DNA of 42,079 bases from a virus (lineage: Duplodnaviria; Caudoviricetes): the IMG/VR virus record IMGVR_UViG_3300004633_000006, positions 1 to 42,079 of that record; one strand, given 5' to 3'. Below are positions 6,821 to 42,079 of this stretch, piece after piece. The notes beneath the pieces were generated by a model. The model did no database searches, was not told where the DNA came from, and worked only from the letters and a program-made list of their open reading frames with translations. The number at the start of each line of letters is the position of its first letter. Positions within the stretch are counted from its first letter, which is position 1. The position numbers were made by a program, and so were the translations under genes.

Positions 6821-7021
6821 TTACTGCTTTCGTCCGATCAAATAGTGCGGGTAATTCGTCTCGCAGCGAATGCCGTTGGCTCTCGCAAGTAGAGAAGCAT
6901 CGCAATCGCTGATCGGTCTTTCGCTGTCTGTGGACGAACAAGCGTCACAGCGTTCAATTGCCAGTCGGCCGTCATCTCTCTCGGATATCACATAGCGCTT
7001 ATCTTGGCAGAATTGACACAT
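6821..7021 (-). CDS. small zinc-binding protein (66 aa)
   Basis: GGAGG RBS; CQFC...CDAC. Confidence 0.75.
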   Translation of the reverse strand: MCQFCQDKRYVISERDDGRLAIERCDACSSTDSERPISDCDASLLARANGIRCETNYPHYLIGRKQ

Positions 7022-7032
7022 GTCATCCTCCA

Positions 7033-7269
7033 TCAGAACGGGATTTTGCAGTCGTCGGGTAGCTTGTTCCACTCGTAATCCGCGGCCACGCCTAACCAGT
7101 GGTCGTGGAAAACTGCTTTCAGTCTGGAGCGCAAGAGTTCCAGGTCGTCGGTCGGATCGGGCCGCTTGACGTCCCAGCCCTTGGCGGACTTGCCTACGTG
7201 CTGGCCGCGATTGCGGCGGACCTGAGCTTGCTCGCGCAATTGGTCCGCGTTGTCGGTCATCCAGGACAT
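7033..7269 (-). CDS. small early protein ending DDCKIPF
   Basis: AAGGAA upstream; SSB-tail-like terminus. Confidence 0.7.
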   Translation of the reverse strand: MSWMTDNADQLREQAQVRRNRGQHVGKSAKGWDVKRPDPTDDLELLRSRLKAVFHDHWLGVAADYEWNKLPDDCKIPF

Positions 7270-7272
7270 GGT

Positions 7273-7500
7273 TCAGGCCCGTTCCTTGTTGGCGCGGATG
7301 ATGGGGCACATTGAATACGAGCCGAACGGCTTGAATTGCTCGACTCCATCGACGGTCTTTAGGCCACGCTTGACGCGCTTGCCATGAGCGATAGTTGTGA
7401 TTGTCTTGTCCGTTCGATCGAGTATCGTAAACGAGAAAATGCATTCCCAATCTGCGATTGATCGAGTTTCGTAGGATTTACCTACTTCGAATTTCATCAT
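7273..7500 (-). CDS. hypothetical early protein (75 aa, MMKFEVGKSY...)
   Basis: GGAGGACACC RBS. Confidence 0.8.
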   Translation of the reverse strand: MMKFEVGKSYETRSIADWECIFSFTILDRTDKTITTIAHGKRVKRGLKTVDGVEQFKPFGSYSMCPIIRANKERA

Positions 7501-7535
7501 GGTGGTGTCCTCCATGTTGGCGAGTGGTCGCCGCT

Positions 7536-7557
7536 GATAGCGCTCGGAAGCGCTATC
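7536..7557. other. intergenic hairpin (possible RNA processing or stability site)
   Basis: GATAGCGCT-CGGA-AGCGCTATC, perfect 9-bp stem, no U tract. Confidence 0.6.
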
Positions 7558-7565
7558 GACTGCGA

Positions 7566-8036
7566 TCACACCAATTCGAGAAGGATGGAACCGTCGCTAC
7601 CGAACACGGTCACATTGCCATGGTCATTGACGAATTTGCAGTCTTCTCCGAGGGCCTTGGCGCCGTCCGAGTCTTCGACGTGCGGCAATTCTTCGATCGA
7701 GTCATGTGATGGCCAGAACCCAAAATCCGCACCATCGCCTTCGTGTGTGCCGAAATAGCAGTAGGGCGGAGCGAAGTTTTGCAAAGCGTCGGAAAGCTCT
7801 TCGATTAGATCGGACGCGATGTCATCCGGATCAGAGAAGTTATCGTCCTCATCGCATAATTCACGTGCGTCCCGCACTATCTTGAGGTAGGCGTCACGTT
7901 CTTTGCGCCTGTCGTCCGAGCACCATTCTTCTGCGTTGTCCTGCACGCACCATTCGAGAGTGTCCGCGAAAGCGTCAAGCAAGTCATCGTCCCGCAGAGT
8001 GGCAGTCGAGACAGAACCTAGTGAAGCGTATTTCAT
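7566..8036 (-). CDS. highly acidic early protein (156 aa)
   Basis: GGAGGACACC RBS; about 40 Asp/Glu by hand count; YCYFGTHEGDGADFGFW. Confidence 0.8.
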   Translation of the reverse strand: MKYASLGSVSTATLRDDDLLDAFADTLEWCVQDNAEEWCSDDRRKERDAYLKIVRDARELCDEDDNFSDPDDIASDLIEELSDALQNFAPPYCYFGTHEGDGADFGFWPSHDSIEELPHVEDSDGAKALGEDCKFVNDHGNVTVFGSDGSILLELV

Positions 8037-8061
8037 GGTGTCCTCCGTTGTGGCGAGTGAT

Positions 8062-8250
8062 TTACCAAGCTTCCTTGCTGATGTAGACAAGGTGCGGCGT
8101 CGATACGTCGACCACGCATTTAGTCCACCCAGAACCCACGGCAGGCTGCCGTGTCGTAATTTCGAGTCGGCCGAAATGGGTTGAATCGTAGCCGTCAGGG
8201 GCATGAACGCGTTCCCAGCGAGTGACGATTCGGCGGCGCGTGCGTGTCAT
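8062..8250 (-). CDS. hypothetical early protein, first gene of the second leftward operon
   Basis: GGAGGACACC RBS just downstream of the promoter. Confidence 0.75.
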   Translation of the reverse strand: MTRTRRRIVTRWERVHAPDGYDSTHFGRLEITTRQPAVGSGWTKCVVDVSTPHLVYISKEAW

Positions 8251-8276
8251 CGGCGGTGTCCTCCATCTGAGGGAAA

Positions 8277-8320
8277 GAGATATCGCATACTATCGATCAC
8301 CAGTCAATAGGAGATATCGA
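8277..8320 (-). promoter_or_regulatory. leftward early promoter flanked by GATATC boxes
   Basis: TTGACT at 8307-8302; GATATC at 8279-8284 and 8313-8318. Confidence 0.65.
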
Positions 8321-8431
8321 CAAAGGCAAAATATTTCGCTAGGGCACTATCGGGACAATGGAGGACAGAAGATGTTGACTCGTCGCAAGGTGCTCTCGGG
8401 CCTGATCGCAGCGCCGGCGCCCAATTAAGGC

Positions 8432-8459
8432 ACAAATGCCCTAATATATTATGGAACAT
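8432..8459 (+). other. partial dif-like site (XerD-type arm TTATGGAACAT at 8449-8459, degenerate XerC side)
   Basis: TTATGGAACATTT (8449-8461) is a perfect 13-bp inverted repeat of 9082-9094. Confidence 0.55.
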
Positions 8460-8489
8460 TTTCGCAAAAGACATAATGTTCACCAACGA

Positions 8490-8502
8490 AATCAACACAC
8501 TA
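8490..8502 (+). promoter_or_regulatory. IHF-like site AATCAACACACTA
   Basis: One mismatch to WATCAANNNNTTR. Confidence 0.45.
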
Positions 8503-8702
8503 GCACCCCTCTTGACAGGTAACAAATTCCTACCCACAGACTCGCGCGCGGCTCACAAGCAGGCAGCAACCGTACCCTACAGCATCCCTAAGGCTGTCCT
8601 GCAGCTGTCCTGCACACCCCACAGCCGGTCACAGCCGCCCGGCTCTCAAGCCCTCGGTAGTGCCCAACCCACAACCCTACCGAGGGCGCCCATCTGGCCC
8701 AC

Positions 8703-8888
8703 ATGATCTGGCACCTGCACTGCTCCGAGGAACTCGCCCAACAACTCGGCATGATCCCAAGCCCACAGCTGCATCGCCCCCACTTCAGATTCCCCATCTA
8801 CGACGCGCCACCCGACAACAGTATCAGCGTTCCCAGCTGCGGCTACTACTGGCCAGTGGACGAAAGCCTCGCCAAGCGAGCAGTGTGA
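8703..8888 (+). CDS. hypothetical protein between the dif-like arms
   Basis: 61-aa ORF downstream of TTGACA at 8512-8517; weak RBS. Confidence 0.4.
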   Translation: MIWHLHCSEELAQQLGMIPSPQLHRPHFRFPIYDAPPDNSISVPSCGYYWPVDESLAKRAV

Positions 8889-9051
8889 TTTGCCCATCCG
8901 ATTGAGCTCCAGATGAGCGGCAAGAGAGCAGAGGTGATTTGCTCCCGCACGGTTCGCCAGCTCGAGCTTGGCCGCGATCGCTGCACACCGGTTGCTCTGC
9001 CGTGCTGATGACGTGTGCTTTTGGTGCAAGAACTGCGCTGCACGTGAAACC

Positions 9052-9064
9052 TAGCTCATTGATA
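9052..9064 (-). promoter_or_regulatory. IHF-like site TATCAATGAGCTA
   Basis: One mismatch to WATCAANNNNTTR, at the same position as in the 8490 site. Confidence 0.45.
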
Positions 9065-9083
9065 TCATTAGCTAATCAGACAA

Positions 9084-9111
9084 ATGTTCCATAAATAGGA
9101 TTATGCGAACG
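9084..9111 (-). other. dif-like XerC/XerD recombination site
   Basis: CGTTCGCATAA-TCCTAT-TTATGGAACAT: 11-6-11 architecture with GCATAA / TTATG inner ends as in chromosomal dif. Confidence 0.8.
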
Positions 9112-9374
9112 TGTGAGCAGGCGCAGCAATATGCTGTGATCTCAGGGGGTTAGGTGGCTGATGCCCTGGGACCGGGGCGCCGGTGGGTTTCCTGGGGCCG
9201 CGGCCAGTCGATGGGACTGAGCGGCGAGAAATGTCGAGACCCCATCCGTACCCCGCCCCAAGGATTTTCTGGGAATGTCCTTGCCTGGGGCTGTACAGGG
9301 GGCAGTTTTTGGTGATATGTGACGTTGCTCTCGTAAGTATCAGCGGAATTGATGGATCGGCTCGGGAAATTGAC

Positions 9375-9620
9375 GTGACTGATGAGTCGAAGAACCCGCC
9401 GTTCATCAAGGCGCAGATGGCAGGACGTCGGATCGGGTATTTGCGGGTGACGCATTTCAATCGAACGGATCATGCGGGCTTGGTTTTGTGGCTGTGCCGG
9501 TGTGATTGTGGTGCGCATGTTTGGAAGTCGGGTGACAATCTGCGGCGTGGTTTGGTGAAGTCGTGCGGCTACGGGCATCGGTACAACTGGCGACGACACA
9601 GGGAATGGAGGGCGAGATGA
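9375..9620 (+). CDS. zinc-binding domain of the type found N-terminal to HNH/AP2 endonucleases (stand-alone or truncated)
   Basis: WLCRCDCG...NLRRG..KSCG; no nuclease domain follows; GTG start inferred. Confidence 0.65.
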   Translation: MTDESKNPPFIKAQMAGRRIGYLRVTHFNRTDHAGLVLWLCRCDCGAHVWKSGDNLRRGLVKSCGYGHRYNWRRHREWRAR

Positions 9621-9751
9621 CCAGTGAAGTTCTTGGTTGGATGCAGCATGTGGGCATGTCGCTCATCATTCTCGGGCTGCTTATGCTTGCGCTTGGAATC
9701 GGTCTCTGCATGACCGAGACGGCCATCTGGATGGCGCAAAATCCACGATGA
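9617..9751 (+). CDS. small single-TM membrane protein
   Basis: GGAGG RBS, ATGA overlap, hydrophobic stretch. Confidence 0.6.
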   Translation: MTSEVLGWMQHVGMSLIILGLLMLALGIGLCMTETAIWMAQNPR

Positions 9752-9760
9752 CAAATCTGC

Positions 9761-11680
9761 ATGGCGCCACCTCGCAAAGTTAACCCGCATCACCGTGATC
9801 CGCGGCTGCCCGACGTCAGCCTGGCGAGCAATCAGAAATGGCTGCCGCTGTTTCTCGAGTTCACTACCTACATGTCGATCAGCTCCAAGGAGCTGGAGGG
9901 GCACCAGAGGCAACCGCTGTCGCAGATATTGTATCGGTCGCAGAAGGTTTTCCTCGAGGAAATCTGCGAGGGGCTCGACCGCGGCATTCATGACTTCAAG
10001 TGCCTCAAAGCACGCCAGCTCGGCATGTCGACGGTCAGCCTGGCGATCGATGTGTTCTGGCTCACCGTGCACGAGAAGCTGCAAGGCGCTCTGGTGACCG
10101 ACACCGAGCCCAACAGGGAGAAGTTTCGTGTCCTCATCGAGCAATACATCGAGTCGCTCCCACATGGTCTACGCGTGGGAATCCGCCGTCATAACCGAAA
10201 CATGCTTGAACTCAATAATGGGAGTTGCCTCGATTACCTGGTTGCGGGAACGAAACGCGGCAACACCACGCTCGGCCAGTCCCGAGCAATCAATTTTCTC
10301 CATGCTACCGAGATCGGAAGCTGGGCCTCCCACGAAGGAATAGCGTCGCTCACCGCGTCGCTGGCGCAGAAGCATCCGGATCGGCTGTACATCTGGGAGT
10401 CGACGGCGCATGGGTACAACGACTGGCATGACATGTACCAGGAAGCGCGCGAGGACGCGCTGACGCAGAAAGCGTTCTTCATCGGGTGGCATCAGAAGGA
10501 GGATTACTCGTTCCAGCTCGGCACGCAGGAGTACGACAAGTACTGGGATGGGCAGATGGACGACGAGGAAATCCGTCTGTGCACCGAGGTGAAGCAGCGG
10601 TACGGGGTGGAGATCACGACGGGCCAGATTGCCTGGCATCGCTGGTACCGGACGGCGAAATTGCCCAATGCCGACCTGATGAACCAGAACTATCCGTGGA
10701 CCGAGGATCAGGCTTTCATCCTCTCGGGCACGAGCTTCTTTCCCCTGCGGCGGCTGGCCGACAACATCAAGTACGTCAAGGAGGCGAAGACTGCGTTCAA
10801 GGGCTATCGCTACCACATGGGCGAGAATTTCCTCGCGACCGAGATCGAGCAGGTGACGCGGCCGAACGAGGCTGAGCTCCGCATCTGGGAAGAGCCCAGC
10901 GTGCATGGGGTCTATGCCATGGGGGTCGACCCGGCCTATGGGCGCGGCGAGGACGAGAAGGACAATCACGCGATCGAGGTGATCCGCTGCTATTCCGACA
11001 AGGTGGTGCAGGTTGCCGAATATGCGACGTCGAACCCGGAGACGCGGCAGCTCGCGTGGGTGATGGCGCACCTGGCCGGCGCCTACAAGAACTGCATCAT
11101 CAATGCCGAGATCCAGGGCCCGGGCATGGCCCTGATGAACGAGCTGAAGCACCTCAAGCAATTGCTCGAGTTCGGGCAGCTCAGGGCGGTGGCGAAGAAT
11201 CTCGGGATGCAGGAGATTTTCGATTGCGTGCGCTGGTATCTCTACCATCGGCCCGACTCGATGGCGGGAAATTACATGTACAACTTCGTCACCACCAACA
11301 ACACGAAGTTGACCATGCTCAACGAGTTGCGCGACAACTACTCGCTCAACATCATGGAGCTGAGGTCGATCCACCTGCTGCGCGAGATGGAGAAGGTGGT
11401 GCAGGACGGGAACAACATAGCGGCGTCGGGCCGGCACAAGGACGATCGCACCTTCGCCATGGGGTTGGCCAACAAGGCCTACATCGATCGGATTCGGGTG
11501 AGCCTGATCGCCAGCGGAATGACGTTCGCGGTGGCGCAGGAGCACGAGCGCGCACAGGCGGCGTCGCCGCAGGCCACCATGATGGCGCACGTTGTCGGGG
11601 ATTTCTTTCGCGGCAAGCAACTGCAAAAGGCGGATGAAGCCTTTCGACTGGCCTGGAGAGAAGGAGGAGTCATCACATGA
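9761..11680 (+). CDS. terL: terminase large subunit
   Basis: LKARQLGMST Walker A, FLHATE Walker B, ESTA coupling motif, GVDPA and HKDDR nuclease acidic residues. Confidence 0.95.
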   Translation: MAPPRKVNPHHRDPRLPDVSLASNQKWLPLFLEFTTYMSISSKELEGHQRQPLSQILYRSQKVFLEEICEGLDRGIHDFKCLKARQLGMSTVSLAIDVFWLTVHEKLQGALVTDTEPNREKFRVLIEQYIESLPHGLRVGIRRHNRNMLELNNGSCLDYLVAGTKRGNTTLGQSRAINFLHATEIGSWASHEGIASLTASLAQKHPDRLYIWESTAHGYNDWHDMYQEAREDALTQKAFFIGWHQKEDYSFQLGTQEYDKYWDGQMDDEEIRLCTEVKQRYGVEITTGQIAWHRWYRTAKLPNADLMNQNYPWTEDQAFILSGTSFFPLRRLADNIKYVKEAKTAFKGYRYHMGENFLATEIEQVTRPNEAELRIWEEPSVHGVYAMGVDPAYGRGEDEKDNHAIEVIRCYSDKVVQVAEYATSNPETRQLAWVMAHLAGAYKNCIINAEIQGPGMALMNELKHLKQLLEFGQLRAVAKNLGMQEIFDCVRWYLYHRPDSMAGNYMYNFVTTNNTKLTMLNELRDNYSLNIMELRSIHLLREMEKVVQDGNNIAASGRHKDDRTFAMGLANKAYIDRIRVSLIASGMTFAVAQEHERAQAASPQATMMAHVVGDFFRGKQLQKADEAFRLAWREGGVIT

Positions 11681-11901
11681 CGGGCGAGATCTACGAGGCT
11701 TCATCCATGGAGACCGACCGCTTCGGTCCTGCCGAGGGCCGTGAGCTGATAGTCTGCGATCGCGCGCAACAGGTGATCGACCGGGCACTGCGCGAGGGCT
11801 GGATCATTCTCAATGGTCCATCGGCCAGACTGTACCTCGAGCAGGCGATCCGCGACGTTCTGGTGCAAGAGGTGCGTGCCGGCGGACCATGGAAACTGTG
11901 A
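11677..11901 (+). CDS. hypothetical protein
   Basis: GGAGGAG RBS, ATGA overlap. Confidence 0.7.
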   Translation: MTGEIYEASSMETDRFGPAEGRELIVCDRAQQVIDRALREGWIILNGPSARLYLEQAIRDVLVQEVRAGGPWKL

Positions 11902-11905
11902 AGCC

Positions 11906-12436
11906 ATGATCCGTCGCACCTACGAATGCCTGGAGTGCCGGCAGGAATTCGAGGTCACCTGTGAGAGCAGCGATCCCGATCCCGACTGCCCGCGGTGCGC
12001 CAAGGTGCTCGAGTGGCGGCCCGGCATGTTCGCGATCACCGGCACCAAGTCCAAGGCCATGGATGTGACGCAGCAGATCCTCGAGCAGGACTTCGGCATG
12101 TCCAATTTCCGCGACAACCAGCGGGAAGGGGACATCGCGGCGATCGTGCCGGAGAAGACCGCAACCGCGCGCAATGCCGAGATCCAGCAGCTATCCGAGG
12201 CTGCGCAGGCGATGGGCACGCCCATGAGTGACGAGCAGAAGAACATGGCGACCCAGTTCTGGGGTGGCGGCAATCCCAGTGGCACGGGCGCCGAGGTGCT
12301 TCAGCACGGTGTGAATCTGGCTAAGCAATCCATGGCGGAGGTCAACGCCGCAGGCCTCAACCCCATGAAGCTGTTGCACGACGCCGGGAAGGCGGGCCGG
12401 ATGCCGATGAAGATCAACGTGGTGGCGCGGGCCTAG
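11906..12436 (+). CDS. FmdB-like zinc-ribbon protein
   Basis: YECLECRQEFE...CPRC. Confidence 0.75.
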   Translation: MIRRTYECLECRQEFEVTCESSDPDPDCPRCAKVLEWRPGMFAITGTKSKAMDVTQQILEQDFGMSNFRDNQREGDIAAIVPEKTATARNAEIQQLSEAAQAMGTPMSDEQKNMATQFWGGGNPSGTGAEVLQHGVNLAKQSMAEVNAAGLNPMKLLHDAGKAGRMPMKINVVARA

Positions 12437-13455
12437 CCCGATCGGCCGTTGACCATGATCGCGGCCACGCCGTTGCCGCCCTCCTTCCACAGCAGAGGTT
12501 CGAAGTCGTCCAGGTATTCGCGGATTTTCTGTGCCGGCAGAAACGTGACGTGCTTCGGTGAGTAGGCATTCCAGTTGTTTACCACATGCCGGACCAGCGG
12601 CAGCTCCGCGTTATAGAATAATTTCATGATGTGGTAGTAGAAAAACCGCTGTAGATTGTAGCGTCCCGCCTTGATCCCGAGACAGTCGATATCGTGCGGG
12701 ATGACCAGCGGTTCCTCGATCTGGCCGAGCGCGATCCCGAGCATGGTGAGCGCCTTGGTAGCTTCAAATCCGGCCTCCGGCGGCATGTTGGAGATTACCG
12801 ATCGCAGGTAATCGTCGGTGAGCTTCCGGATCGGCTTCTGTTCCGTGTAAACCCAGGTGATGAACAGACCTTCCTTCTTCAGGACGCGCCGGCATTCCTG
12901 AATCGTCACGTGCATGTCGAGCGAGTAGTGCAGGACGCCGGGGCAGAACACGACGTCAAACGATGCATCGGCGAACGGCATCGCTTCGGCCTCGCACTGC
13001 ACCAGCCCGACGGGCAGGTCGTGCCGCTCGAAATCGTCGCGCGCCTGGTCGATCGCTCCCGACATGTCGAGACCGATGTAGGTCAGGGAAGAAAAATTGC
13101 TGTGGAAAAATGCCCGTCCCGCCACGCCGGACCCGCAGCCGACATCGAGCACCCGGGAACTGTCGGGGATCTCTGGCCGGTCCTCGATCGGGAACATGTC
13201 GGCGAACACCTCGCGCTGGAACCGATCGCTCGCCTCTCCGTCGTAGGCGCCCGGCGTTTTCCAGTGCCGGTCATAGAAGCTCGAGGTGTCTGACAGGCGC
13301 CGGTCGACCAGGCCCCAAGCGCGCAAGATCCCGCCGTGCATGGAGTAATTGCGGCCGCGCAGACGCAGAGGAGATCCCGGCGGGGGCAGCGAGAATCCGA
13401 GAATTTCCTCAAGCGGGTGAGGTGTTTGCTTGGTTTCCTTCAGCAACAGGGTCAT
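12433..13455 (-). CDS. class I SAM-dependent methyltransferase (small-molecule/sugar type), moron-like
   Basis: VLDVGCGSG, GLDMS, MPFADASFDVVFCPGVLH, RVLKKEG; AAGGAAG RBS before ATG 13455. Confidence 0.85.
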   Translation of the reverse strand: MTLLLKETKQTPHPLEEILGFSLPPPGSPLRLRGRNYSMHGGILRAWGLVDRRLSDTSSFYDRHWKTPGAYDGEASDRFQREVFADMFPIEDRPEIPDSSRVLDVGCGSGVAGRAFFHSNFSSLTYIGLDMSGAIDQARDDFERHDLPVGLVQCEAEAMPFADASFDVVFCPGVLHYSLDMHVTIQECRRVLKKEGLFITWVYTEQKPIRKLTDDYLRSVISNMPPEAGFEATKALTMLGIALGQIEEPLVIPHDIDCLGIKAGRYNLQRFFYYHIMKLFYNAELPLVRHVVNNWNAYSPKHVTFLPAQKIREYLDDFEPLLWKEGGNGVAAIMVNGRSG

Positions 13456-13503
13456 GGACGATCTTCCTTTTGATCTATCGGTGGAACGGGTGTACACAGT
13501 CCA

Positions 13504-13533
13504 TTGACGCAACACGGGTTGCGCGATCGTAAT
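13504..13533 (+). promoter_or_regulatory. putative promoter for the portal
   Basis: TTGACG-18 nt-CGTAAT in the gap between divergent genes. Confidence 0.4.
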
Positions 13534-13547
13534 GCCAGAGGGCAATC

Positions 13548-15200
13548 ATGCGACTGCCGCGCCGTAACATCGGCCCGTGGGCCAAGGATCTGATCGACGA
13601 ATGCAAGGCCAGCGTCGAAGCGCGCCGGGATCTCAACCGCCTGTGGGTCATGTACTACTATGGCGGCACCAACGACGGGTCTTCCGCCGTCTACAATCGC
13701 ACCTTCTCCCATATCGATCGCCTCGCCTCGTTCCTCTTTTCCCCGACTGACGCGCGCTTTTCTCTTGAGGGTGATCCGGCCGAAGATCCCAAGTCGCTCG
13801 ATATCCTCGACGCCGCCGGCCGTCACCTTAATCGGGAATTCCACCGTTGCAATTGCGATCTCACTTTTGCCGCCGCCGTCAACTGGGGATTGGTCAAGGG
13901 GTGCGCGCTGGTCAAGCAATTGTGGGGCCACGAGGGGCTCGAACCGTGGCTGGTGCAGCCGGAAATGTTCGCCGTGCTGCGCGAGGACATCAGCGATCTC
14001 GACCGGCAGGACGCCTTTGTCGAGACCACCTATATGACGCGAGCGGCGTTCTCGCGCACCATCGCCGAGCACCCGAATCGGCGCGAGTTGATGCGCTCGG
14101 TCGCGCAGACCTTGAAAGCGAAGGAAGACGACGATCCGACCGCGGACAACTACCTGATGCAGATCGTGGTCGGCGGCACCGCGCCGGTGTCAACCACGCA
14201 ATCGGCCGGCAACGCCATGGTCAACTTCTCCAGCGTGCCGCGGCCCATGCTGGCGCCCGAGGTGGCGAGCCGACTGGTGCGCCTCGAAGAACTGTGGGTG
14301 GTCGACGACGAGCGGCAGGATTACACGACGATTCGCATGGTCGAGGACGTGGTGATCGAGGGCGCCGAGCGTCGCCGCAACCTGTCGGGGGTCAAGGGCG
14401 AGCAACCCTATACCAAGGTGTGCCCGAACGAGGTGGATGGCTATTTCTGGGGCCTGTCCGAGATCGCAGCGGTGTACAAGCTTCAGGAATTGTTGAATTC
14501 CCAGATGAAAAGATTGCAGGAAGTCACTGCACTGAAAGCCGATCCTCCGCGAGCCTTCATCGGCTTTACCGGCATGACCCAGGAGAAGTACAATGCGCTG
14601 CGTGTGCCCGGATCTATGATTTCTGAAACAGATCCAAACGGTAAGATCGAAACGTTGTCACCTGAGGTACCGCCGGAACTTCTCATCGAGAGGATCAACT
14701 CGACGATACAATACTTTGACGATGTTGCAGGATTCACCCCGATCATGATGGGAATGGGCGATCAGGGCGTGCGCAGTCAGGCGCAAGCGCAAACTCTCGC
14801 CCGTAACTCATCGCCGCGCATGAGAGATCGGGCGTTGCTGGTCGAGCGCCAGGCGGTGGAATACGGCGAGTACAGCCTGAAGCTGCTCGCGGCCAAGGAT
14901 GCGGAAGTGCGCATGACCGAGGGCAAGCAGGAGTTCGTCCTGTCGCAGTTGCCGGAGAACTACCGCACCGCAATAGACAGCCATTCGTCATCGCCGGCAT
15001 TCCAGGAGGACAACCGCAATCTGGCGGTGGGCCTGAAGAAGCTCGGCGTGATCGACGACGAGGACACGATCGCCATGGTGCATCCGCCGCACGAGGATCA
15101 CCTGATAATGAAGGCGCGGGCCAAGGCGAAGGCGCAAGCCGAGCTGATCGCGAAGCACCCTGAGCTGCTGCAAAAGGGCGGCAAGAAGAAACCTGCTTGA
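13548..15200 (+). CDS. portal protein
   Basis: 550 aa, helical; YFWGLSEI...LQELLN clip/stem pattern; between TerL and scaffold/capsid. Confidence 0.85.
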   Translation: MRLPRRNIGPWAKDLIDECKASVEARRDLNRLWVMYYYGGTNDGSSAVYNRTFSHIDRLASFLFSPTDARFSLEGDPAEDPKSLDILDAAGRHLNREFHRCNCDLTFAAAVNWGLVKGCALVKQLWGHEGLEPWLVQPEMFAVLREDISDLDRQDAFVETTYMTRAAFSRTIAEHPNRRELMRSVAQTLKAKEDDDPTADNYLMQIVVGGTAPVSTTQSAGNAMVNFSSVPRPMLAPEVASRLVRLEELWVVDDERQDYTTIRMVEDVVIEGAERRRNLSGVKGEQPYTKVCPNEVDGYFWGLSEIAAVYKLQELLNSQMKRLQEVTALKADPPRAFIGFTGMTQEKYNALRVPGSMISETDPNGKIETLSPEVPPELLIERINSTIQYFDDVAGFTPIMMGMGDQGVRSQAQAQTLARNSSPRMRDRALLVERQAVEYGEYSLKLLAAKDAEVRMTEGKQEFVLSQLPENYRTAIDSHSSSPAFQEDNRNLAVGLKKLGVIDDEDTIAMVHPPHEDHLIMKARAKAKAQAELIAKHPELLQKGGKKKPA

Positions 15201-40512: not shown

Positions 40513-40731
40513 TCATTGGGGATCGTCCCTAGCTGTGATCCTGGCCACCGGAATGCCGAGCACGGTGAACACATCCTCATCGATTTCGGAAATCTGAATA
40601 TCATCACGGTGGCATTCGAATTCGAGCTGGATGACACCGCGAGTCCAAGTACCGACCGCGTTAGGCCATTCCGCACCGAACCATGACCACGCGATGCAGC
40701 GGCCGTCGAGGTGGTTAATGGAGAGGATCAT
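40513..40731 (-). CDS. hypothetical protein
   Basis: GGAG RBS, ATGA overlap. Confidence 0.6.
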   Translation of the reverse strand: MILSINHLDGRCIAWSWFGAEWPNAVGTWTRGVIQLEFECHRDDIQISEIDEDVFTVLGIPVARITARDDPQ

Positions 40732-41546
40732 AGCATCTGCTCCGTGAGCGGAAGCCACTGGCAACCAGGGGCTTTCATTTCTATGAGAATTTGCACGATG
40801 TCCTCAGCATAGGACGACAACGCCTCATCGCCGCTGCCACCTGCGGCGTCGGCGGCGGCGTCGGCGGCGTAGGCGGCGGCGGCGGCGGCGGCGGCGTAGG
40901 CGGCGTAGGCGGCGGCGTCGGCGGCGTAGGCGGCGGCGTCGACGGCGGCGGCGGAGGCGGCGGAGGCGGCGTAGGCGGCGGCGTCGGCGGCGTAGGCGGC
41001 GGAGGCGTAGGCGGCGGCGTCGACGGCGTAGGCGGCGGAGGCGTAGGCGGCGGCGTCGACGGCGGCGGCGGAGGCGGCGGCGGTCTTTTTTGCCTCTAAT
41101 GCTGCCTTTGTCGATGCATCGTGTTCGCATCGTGAAGCGGCACCTAGCAAAACTTGTTTGTGCTTCGGATCGCGATGGATTGAGGCGGCATAGCGAAGTG
41201 CAAGCGGGACTGATTTGGTTAACGCATAATCGACAACGCGACGCACAAATTCTTTTTCATCCAATGTGGCCGCGCTTCCGAGTTGCGCGACCGCAAGACG
41301 GCGCAAGCCTTTTGCGCGCGTCTCGTTTGAGGACCAACTTGCGTCATTCAAACGAATTTTCAATGAACGCAATGCAGGCGCGACACATTGAGGTTTGTCA
41401 CCATGAGGCAAACCAAGTGCAAAGCAAACTGCGGCCTCAACGCACATTTGACCGGGAATTTGATTTCCGAGACCGCTGGTCAGACCAGCATCCACAACGT
41501 CAAGCAATTTGCGAACGACTGACTCATTCACATCCATTTCGCTCAT
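40728..41546 (-). CDS. Ala-rich repeat protein
   Basis: Globular N-terminus (MCVEAAVC..LGLPHGD.P.CV), about 80-aa AAAY/AAAD tract at 40843-41082. Confidence 0.85.
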   Translation of the reverse strand: MSEMDVNESVVRKLLDVVDAGLTSGLGNQIPGQMCVEAAVCFALGLPHGDKPQCVAPALRSLKIRLNDASWSSNETRAKGLRRLAVAQLGSAATLDEKEFVRRVVDYALTKSVPLALRYAASIHRDPKHKQVLLGAASRCEHDASTKAALEAKKTAAASAAAVDAAAYASAAYAVDAAAYASAAYAADAAAYAASAASAAAVDAAAYAADAAAYAAYAAAAAAAAYAADAAADAAGGSGDEALSSYAEDIVQILIEMKAPGCQWLPLTEQML

Positions 41547-42079
41547 TGTGATTTCTCCTTGGCTAATAGCGAAGCCTCGGCCTCGGCCATACGCTTCATG
41601 TCGGCAAGCGCAGTTTCGTTGTCCTCGAAAAATCTCACGGGACTTATTTTGGGCAATGATGAGCTGGCGTCGTAAATCTTCATTGCCGCCAATGGCGTAT
41701 CGAAGAAAGCTTCTAATTTCCTGCCGGCATCACCCGCCAATGTAATCACCCATCCTGCACGGCAGTGCGCTTGTTCACAGGTGTGCCATGTTTTCATGTT
41801 GAATGCGTGGGGCTTTGACGCTGCCTCATATACTCGCTGATGGATGTTATCGATTACTGGGACCGCAGGCAGTGGCTTTGCCTGTGATGTTTTCGTAACG
41901 CCCAAGCAGCCCGAGCAGTCCGAGCAGCGCGAGCAGCGCGAGCAGTCCGAGCAGTCCGAGCAGTCCGAGCAGCGCGAGCAGCCCCGGCAGCCCGAGCAGT
42001 ACGAGCAGCCCGAGCAGTACGAGCAGCCCCGGCAGCCCCGGCAGCCCCGGCAGCCCGAGCAGCCCGAGCAGTACGAGCA
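41543..42079 (-). CDS. 3' part of the origin-spanning Cys-x-x repeat protein
   Basis: Repeats followed by the domain MKTWHTCEQAHCRAGWVITLAG. Confidence 0.85.
   Translation of the reverse strand, partial: CSYCSGCSGCRGCRGCRGCSYCSGCSYCSGCRGCSRCSDCSDCSDCSRCSRCSDCSGCLGVTKTSQAKPLPAVPVIDNIHQRVYEAASKPHAFNMKTWHTCEQAHCRAGWVITLAGDAGRKLEAFFDTPLAAMKIYDASSSLPKISPVRFFEDNETALADMKRMAEAEASLLAKEKSQ
41906..42079. repeat. 9-bp tandem repeat, continuous with 1-201 on the circle
   Basis: Units in unbroken 9-nt phase; the last 21 nt duplicate bases 1-21. Confidence 0.95.

Follow-up and report, generated by a model that had tools for sequence, protein, structure and literature searches.

A dif-like recombination site just ahead of the packaging operon of an uncultured soil phage is predicted to be the place where host XerC and XerD close the genome after injection, a reading to which we give about even chances. 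The strongest signal behind it is positional: across unrelated phages such a site lies at a fixed place upstream of the terminase. The window, by which we mean the whole stretch of DNA analysed, is the tailed-phage record IMGVR_UViG_3300004633_000006 from soil metagenomes, a complete circle of 42,079 bp in which one open frame crosses the record ends. The full 11-6-11 site (site B) occupies 9084-9111 on the minus strand, 650 bp upstream of terL, and reads CGTTCGCATAA TCCTAT TTATGGAACAT (XerC arm 9101-9111, spacer 9095-9100, XerD arm 9084-9094). A lone XerD-type arm (site A) lies at 8449-8459 on the plus strand, inverted with respect to B and preceded by AATATA (8443-8448). A preliminary description had reported the 28-bp site and the identical inverted arm, and our analysis confirmed both in sequence and arms; its picture of a dif copy on a phage that has no detectable recombinase and probably borrows XerCD stands, but the three uses it proposed for the site fare poorly, and the position upstream of the terminase had been missed.

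Judged by its sequence, site B is a genuine Hyphomicrobiales-type dif core. The consensus core of the order, CGCATAA-N6-TTATGGAA(C), was present in 339 of 401 Hyphomicrobiales genomes, mostly once and with reversed controls near zero; an estimated ~3300 GTDB stretches contain it, the 120 matches listed being mostly Hyphomicrobiales. The dif sites of Agrobacterium, Brucella and Mesorhizobium given in Table 1 of PMC2731167 have the arms of site B, so that the earlier assignment to a Rhizobiales XerD arm was correct. Site B further has the features expected of an Xer site: two host-matching arms, a spacer within the 6-8-bp range, a non-coding location and conservation relative to its surroundings (28/28 identical in the relative L323, where the flanks match at only 14/19 and 51/60). 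It shares the 11-6-11 layout and both arm cores with the chromosomal dif/XerC-XerD/FtsK system of Hyphomicrobiales but differs from it in lying on a 42-kb phage, in its non-host spacer, in the IHF-like box that lies 19 bp past its XerD arm, and in that no KOPS polarity was seen in the phage, where the motifs are too few to judge (3 forward, 2 reverse).

The spacer is where phage and host part. TCCTAT matches the common host spacers at no more than 2 of 6 positions (120 host sites listed), and its XerC-side and XerD-side 3 bp are each shared with 1 of the 120 listed host sites. Likewise, none of 28 terminase-adjacent viral spacers is identical to one of the 13 host spacers that occur at least twice among those 120. 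The comparison of the 28-mer with host dif sites that had been proposed as a check succeeded for the arms but not for the spacer. A spacer foreign to the host is what would be expected of a site that recombines with itself. From the arms we predict the host of this phage family at the level of the order, Hyphomicrobiales, and no more narrowly. One family member, L290, has its dif 3.25 kb upstream of terL, placed as in its kin, with a different XerD arm, TTATGTTAAAT, which we take to be of the beta/gammaproteobacterial type; this divergence suggests a match between the site and its host.

Our evidence on position comes from the 99 IMG/VR stretches in which the dif core was found, a set in which both arms and the exact 6-bp spacer are fixed by the search pattern itself and which probably includes a few chance matches in coding DNA. 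We took 50 records of at least 27 kb and analysed 48 of them, among which 7 encode a tyrosine recombinase and 14 encode ParA. terL could be placed in 31 (its 5' ends set manually and approximate); 17 were dropped, including four with only weak ATPase-like matches. In the ParA-less records dif lay 0.05-6.6 kb upstream of terL in 18 of 21, where 3.4 would be expected (binomial p 4e-12, uncorrected for kinship), as against 0 of 10 ParA records with dif within 7 kb upstream (Fisher p 6e-6), the ParA phage-plasmids keeping it ~40 kb from terL. The terL-adjacent phages span several terminase groups, some of them related, so that these p-values overstate independence. In these phages terS often lies no more than a few hundred bases away. 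Five of the 18 encode their own tyrosine recombinase, so that dif does not merely take the place of an attP. The split between terL and ParA offers a simple rule for separating phage-plasmid dif sites from packaging-linked ones.

Within the phage's own terL family (405 viral stretches, 1616 proteins) the site is far from universal. Full sites occurred in 7 of 74 upstream and 0 of 80 downstream regions, 4 of the 7 coming from the seed alignment. In a metagenome scan seeded only by the phage terL, 6 non-identical loci reached at least 1 kb upstream of the gene and 4 of these had the full site, and large or near-complete records picked by terL alone carried it in 1 of 14. Presence was scattered on a quick terL tree (11 changes versus 12.0 when shuffled). 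Only a minority of the family, then, has the site, which is either dispensable or host-specific. A different motif, an ATAA-N6-TTAT palindrome with a GC-rich middle (GGTACG, CCACCG), was seen upstream of terL in G462, G464, G466, L274, L278, L281 and L290, family members mostly without a full dif.

The gene map places the Xer region at a divergent boundary. Small leftward genes (7036-8250, minus strand; 7566-8204 matches phrog_29605) lie on one side, and on the other the packaging/virion operon begins with terL (9761-11680, plus strand, 639 aa), which was identified by tblastn to annotated terL records, by profile hits to T4 gp17 structures and by its 405-stretch viral family. An HNH-endonuclease-like fragment (9183-9620, plus strand; phrog_374) that differs among relatives sits between site B and terL. 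A sigma-70 promoter and terminator scan of 7900-9800 returned nothing, and blastn against cultured phages gave no match for 7000-12000 and a best E of only 8 for the 81-bp site. The earlier finding of no recombinase gene was upheld: none was detected among the 121 phage ORFs against PHROGs and Pfam, and six-frame searches with PF00589, PF00239, PF03837 and PF04404 were negative for the phage under conditions in which positive controls were detected. Together these ORF-profile and six-frame family searches detected no integrase, resolvase, RecT, Erf or ParA, and the ORF profiles no recognisable repressor. A divergent recombinase may have escaped detection, since most early ORFs match no family; one of the phage's ORFs, 1692-2435, had no usable match in a protein atlas. 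Side features of the map are a zinc-ribbon ORF (11813-12436) conserved between terL and a conserved 550-aa ORF at 13548, and a SAM-dependent methyltransferase gene (12433-13545, minus strand) opposed to the direction of the late operon.

The preliminary description had also noted inverted IHF-like boxes 30 and 19 bp from the two arms. Using the IHF consensus WATCARNNNNTTR, we found both with one mismatch each: TATCAATGAGCTA at 9052-9064 (minus strand), 19 bp past the XerD arm of site B, and AATCAACACACTA at 8490-8502 (plus strand), 30 bp beyond arm A. With 41 one-mismatch boxes genome-wide the pair by itself is not above chance, but the box at 9052-9064 gains support because the 19-bp offset recurs in relatives. 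A box with at most one mismatch to WATCAR-N4-YTR lay exactly 19 bp past the XerD arm in 11 of 74 viral sites (near-duplicates removed, the phage's own included) compared with 1 of 118 host sites, and no other offset on that side and in that orientation exceeded one viral site. On the XerC side such boxes are scattered over several offsets; the sharp fixed-distance box is that of the XerD side. A query with XerD arm and box, free of the XerC arm, returned 25 stretches, and the XerC arm was present in all 7 with a GC content above 50% and in 0 of the 18 low-GC ones. The 30-bp box is 12/13 identical in L323, the change falling in an N position, and its spacing has a single parallel (31 bp, in L042), which leaves ~30 bp weakly established as a fixed distance. 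The proposed link of one helical turn between the 19- and 30-bp boxes has just that one other instance. A class defined as a lone arm with an IHF box at 28-33 bp was not supported; its 27 viral stretches were mostly low-GC and chance-like, with only L376 (= L042) relevant.

Recombination of the site with a second copy of itself is indicated by its host-type arms, its free spacer unlike the host's and its placement where the packaging operon begins. We favor the possibility, at roughly even chances as stated above, that the phage uses host XerC and XerD, the likely actors as had already been suggested, to join two copies of site B carried in the repeated ends of its genome. Packaging would start just upstream and so place site B inside the terminal redundancy; XerCD would bind and recombine it, with IHF perhaps bending the XerD-side flank as an accessory factor and easing the need for FtsK; and joining the two copies at the repeated ends of injected DNA would close the genome. 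Phages that package by the headful or the DTR route have genomes with repeated ends, and P1 packages terminally redundant DNA (PMC11769102); Cre/loxP can replace dif (PMC11724359). Consistent with this idea are (i) the host-type arms; (ii) the 19-bp box; (iii) the location upstream of terL in phages devoid of ParA and, in our phage, of any detectable recombinase; (iv) the divergent dif of L290 at the same place and (v) weak terL matches that include Stx phages, described as headful packagers in PMC7317114. Precedent for such a job comes from elsewhere, for P1 closes its terminally redundant ends by loxP/Cre. The likeness to P1 lies in the predicted joining of two copies near the packaging start; here, in contrast, the phage is known from contigs, there are no plasmid partition genes, and host XerCD would act in place of a phage-encoded recombinase, so that it would at best work like P1 without belonging to that type.

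Several observations weigh against closure of the genome by XerCD. The assembled contigs that the analysis covered gave no genome-end signal; no terS was recognised upstream of terL among the conserved ORFs of the family and no pac was identified. The site is patchy, in 1 of 14 records chosen by terL and scattered on the tree, and in the wider sample it lies up to 6.6 kb from terL, farther than a terminal redundancy normally reaches unless pac shifts together with dif. Two relatives have dif alongside enzymes of their own (Erf in G008, a serine resolvase in G013), terL is only ~24% similar to headful packagers, and the region upstream of terL is also just a large non-coding boundary. XerCD recombination at dif requires FtsK (PMC11724359), whereas the phage shows no KOPS polarity, and accessory sequences known from other Xer sites flank the XerC arm, not the XerD arm as the phage box does. 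Accessory placement sets the order of strand exchange, as Bregu et al. reportedly found in 2002.

If host XerCD does close the genome, tailed dsDNA phages that process their own ends would be a third kind of XerCD exploitation, next to integration (filamentous and satellite elements) and the keeping of monomers (plasmids); this would explain how some phages lacking a recombinase circularise, and the fixed 19-bp IHF-like box would be a new accessory arrangement. A bolder generalisation, which we regard as speculative and rather unlikely, is that dif and an IHF site set 19 bp off its XerD arm form a portable cassette at the packaging start of many unrelated, lytic-looking alphaproteobacterial tailed phages and embody a third mode of Xer control, in which IHF would replace FtsK or PepA and switch XerD on at phage DNA ends while lone XerD arms such as site A would load or hold XerD nearby. 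In the literature covered, subscription journals being largely outside it, we found no account of a terminase-linked dif in tailed phages; cases exist for IMEXs, microviruses, non-tailed phages and plasmids.

It is also possible, if doubtful, that site B keeps replicating circles monomeric through host XerCD, either during early theta replication or in a carrier or episomal state. This too predicts host arms with a free spacer, and it could draw on the DnaT-like replication initiator of the phage (5204-5746, plus strand, from PHROGs and Pfam profile searches) and on the ParA phage-plasmids that share the core. Plasmid Xer sites use accessory DNA-bending factors, in cer (ColE1) and psi (pSC101) PepA with ArgR or ArcA, acting on the XerC side (PMC11724359). 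Site B resembles cer and psi in its borrowed XerCD, in a spacer unlike chromosomal dif and in a site for a DNA-bending factor at a fixed distance, but its box is IHF-like and on the XerD side, and the element that carries it is a ParA-less tailed phage. Multimer resolution leaves the placement upstream of terL unexplained; site B lies ~3.4 kb from the initiator and not across the genome from it; and there is neither ParA nor a recognisable repressor, nor a member of the family in any of 401 host assemblies. The plasmid-type dimer resolution that had been suggested for an episome also sits badly with the ParA phage-plasmids, which combine a partition system with a dif site remote from the packaging genes; our phage has neither.

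Site A has to be considered with another alternative, which we hold to be unlikely, namely that XerD (with or without XerC) and IHF form a platform, free of crossover, that shapes DNA at the packaging start or at the divergent early/late promoters. The 11-mer of site A, TTATGGAACAT, is identical to the arm of site B; the two hold the only exact TTATGGAAC in the 42-kb genome and lie in a perfect 13-bp inverted repeat (8449-8461 and 9082-9094, 620 nt apart), a second exact 11-mer within 1 kb being expected 0.0004 times by composition. The preliminary description gave site A a degenerate XerC side. Scored against the host XerC-arm matrix, that side reaches -31.5 bits in the 6-bp register, where 90% of phage 11-mers score as well; only with a 4-bp spacer does it stand out (1.4 bits, top 0.26%). 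Site A therefore has no XerC arm at the 6-8-bp spacing that defines an Xer site, and from its sequence we read it as a lone XerD-binding site or a decayed dif, not as a crossover partner. It is nevertheless kept, in L323 and in related-strain contigs that match only 8443-8497, and conservation of an arm of this kind counts in favor of a binding platform.

Lone XerD arms were found at 9 of 64 viral dif loci, where 1.55 would be expected, as against 2 of 78 in hosts (0.65 expected), and in 4 of 74 upstream regions of the family (for the upstream count, none in 10 simulations each). They occur downstream too (3 of 80), with mixed side and orientation, which speaks against a platform, as does the fact that full sites keep both arms and the exact 6-bp spacer, including in family members found by terL alone. 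On the other side, IHF is known to act at the packaging sites of lambda and P1. L302, L270 and G462 each have a lone XerD arm where close kin carry a full site. In L016, L026/L055 and L041, which have ParA or are phage-plasmid-like at 80-118 kb, a lone XerD arm faces a full dif 84-100 bp away, in the same inward geometry as the A/B pair of our phage but closer; in L016, L041 and the family member L238 the lone arm is followed by a GC(G/C)GCTTGCGGCCC-like sequence.

Integration at host dif, in the manner of a tailed IMEX, was among the earlier proposals and is in our view improbable, whether through B or through A, whose spacer AATATA differs by no more than one base from 36 of the 120 listed host spacers. 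In its favor, no integrase was found, the soil hosts may be unsequenced, and site A with its near-host spacer would be the mirror image of the TLC-type attP, which has an intact XerC side and a degenerate XerD arm (PMC5357621). The phage resembles the IMEXs (CTXphi, VGJphi, TLCphi, GGI) as a mobile element with a dif-like site and no integrase of its own, and CTXphi likewise has two inverted sites (PMC5357621). Yet the spacer of B lacks homology to host dif, its halves each matching 1 of 120 listed host sites; the arms are 620 nt apart instead of 90 nt; and the element is a dsDNA tailed phage. The search for related prophages found no family terL, and hence no integrated copy, in 401 genomes of the host order, where there were only two weak 76-bit matches. 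Among 29 family records an integrase occurs in 1 and none is classed as a provirus, and of the best 120 of the 1616 terL relatives 118 are on contigs below 44 kb (one is on 100.6 kb and one is without a length). The five terL-adjacent phages with a tyrosine recombinase of their own also fit poorly with integration by XerCD, and the contigs of five runs contained no host-phage junction at site A or B. As a separate matter, a CTXphi-like single-strand hairpin was considered and rejected; the arms pair in the fold, but z is -1.67 (20 shuffles) and the spacers are unpaired.

The last of the earlier proposals, XerCD inversion of the 620-bp segment as an early/late switch, is very improbable: the perfect 13-bp inverted repeat and the mirrored IHF-like boxes, both kept in L323, would suit it, but A has no XerC arm in register, the spacers AATATA and TCCTAT share 0 of 6 positions, the orientation is the same in L323, L326 and all contigs compared, no second arm facing inward at such a distance turned up elsewhere in the family, and the contigs, from which assembly drops rare forms, contained neither a flipped form nor a strand-switch joint at A or B. 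In run X6 one contig breaks at site B because a related strain has the site in common but departs from the phage sequence after 9113.

Two further observations concern other loci. A gene of ~270 aa runs across the record ends (minus strand, 41543-42079 continuing into 1-296); a 9-bp tandem array within it encodes Cys-x-x repeats, and its C-terminal part matches phrog_31265. Beside it, a 272-aa ORF (40728-41546, minus strand) bears an extended Ala/Tyr/Asp repeat encoded by another tandem array (40843-41083). Among the 150 host matches listed of 374, a pair of same-strand dif cores 33 kb apart (L369 and L370, at G402:C203:174795-208134, Hyphomicrobiales) flanks a defence island with dnd, GmrSD, AbiE, Mrr and a tyrosine recombinase, which is IMEX-like and contains 0 virion genes in the 22 ORFs scanned.
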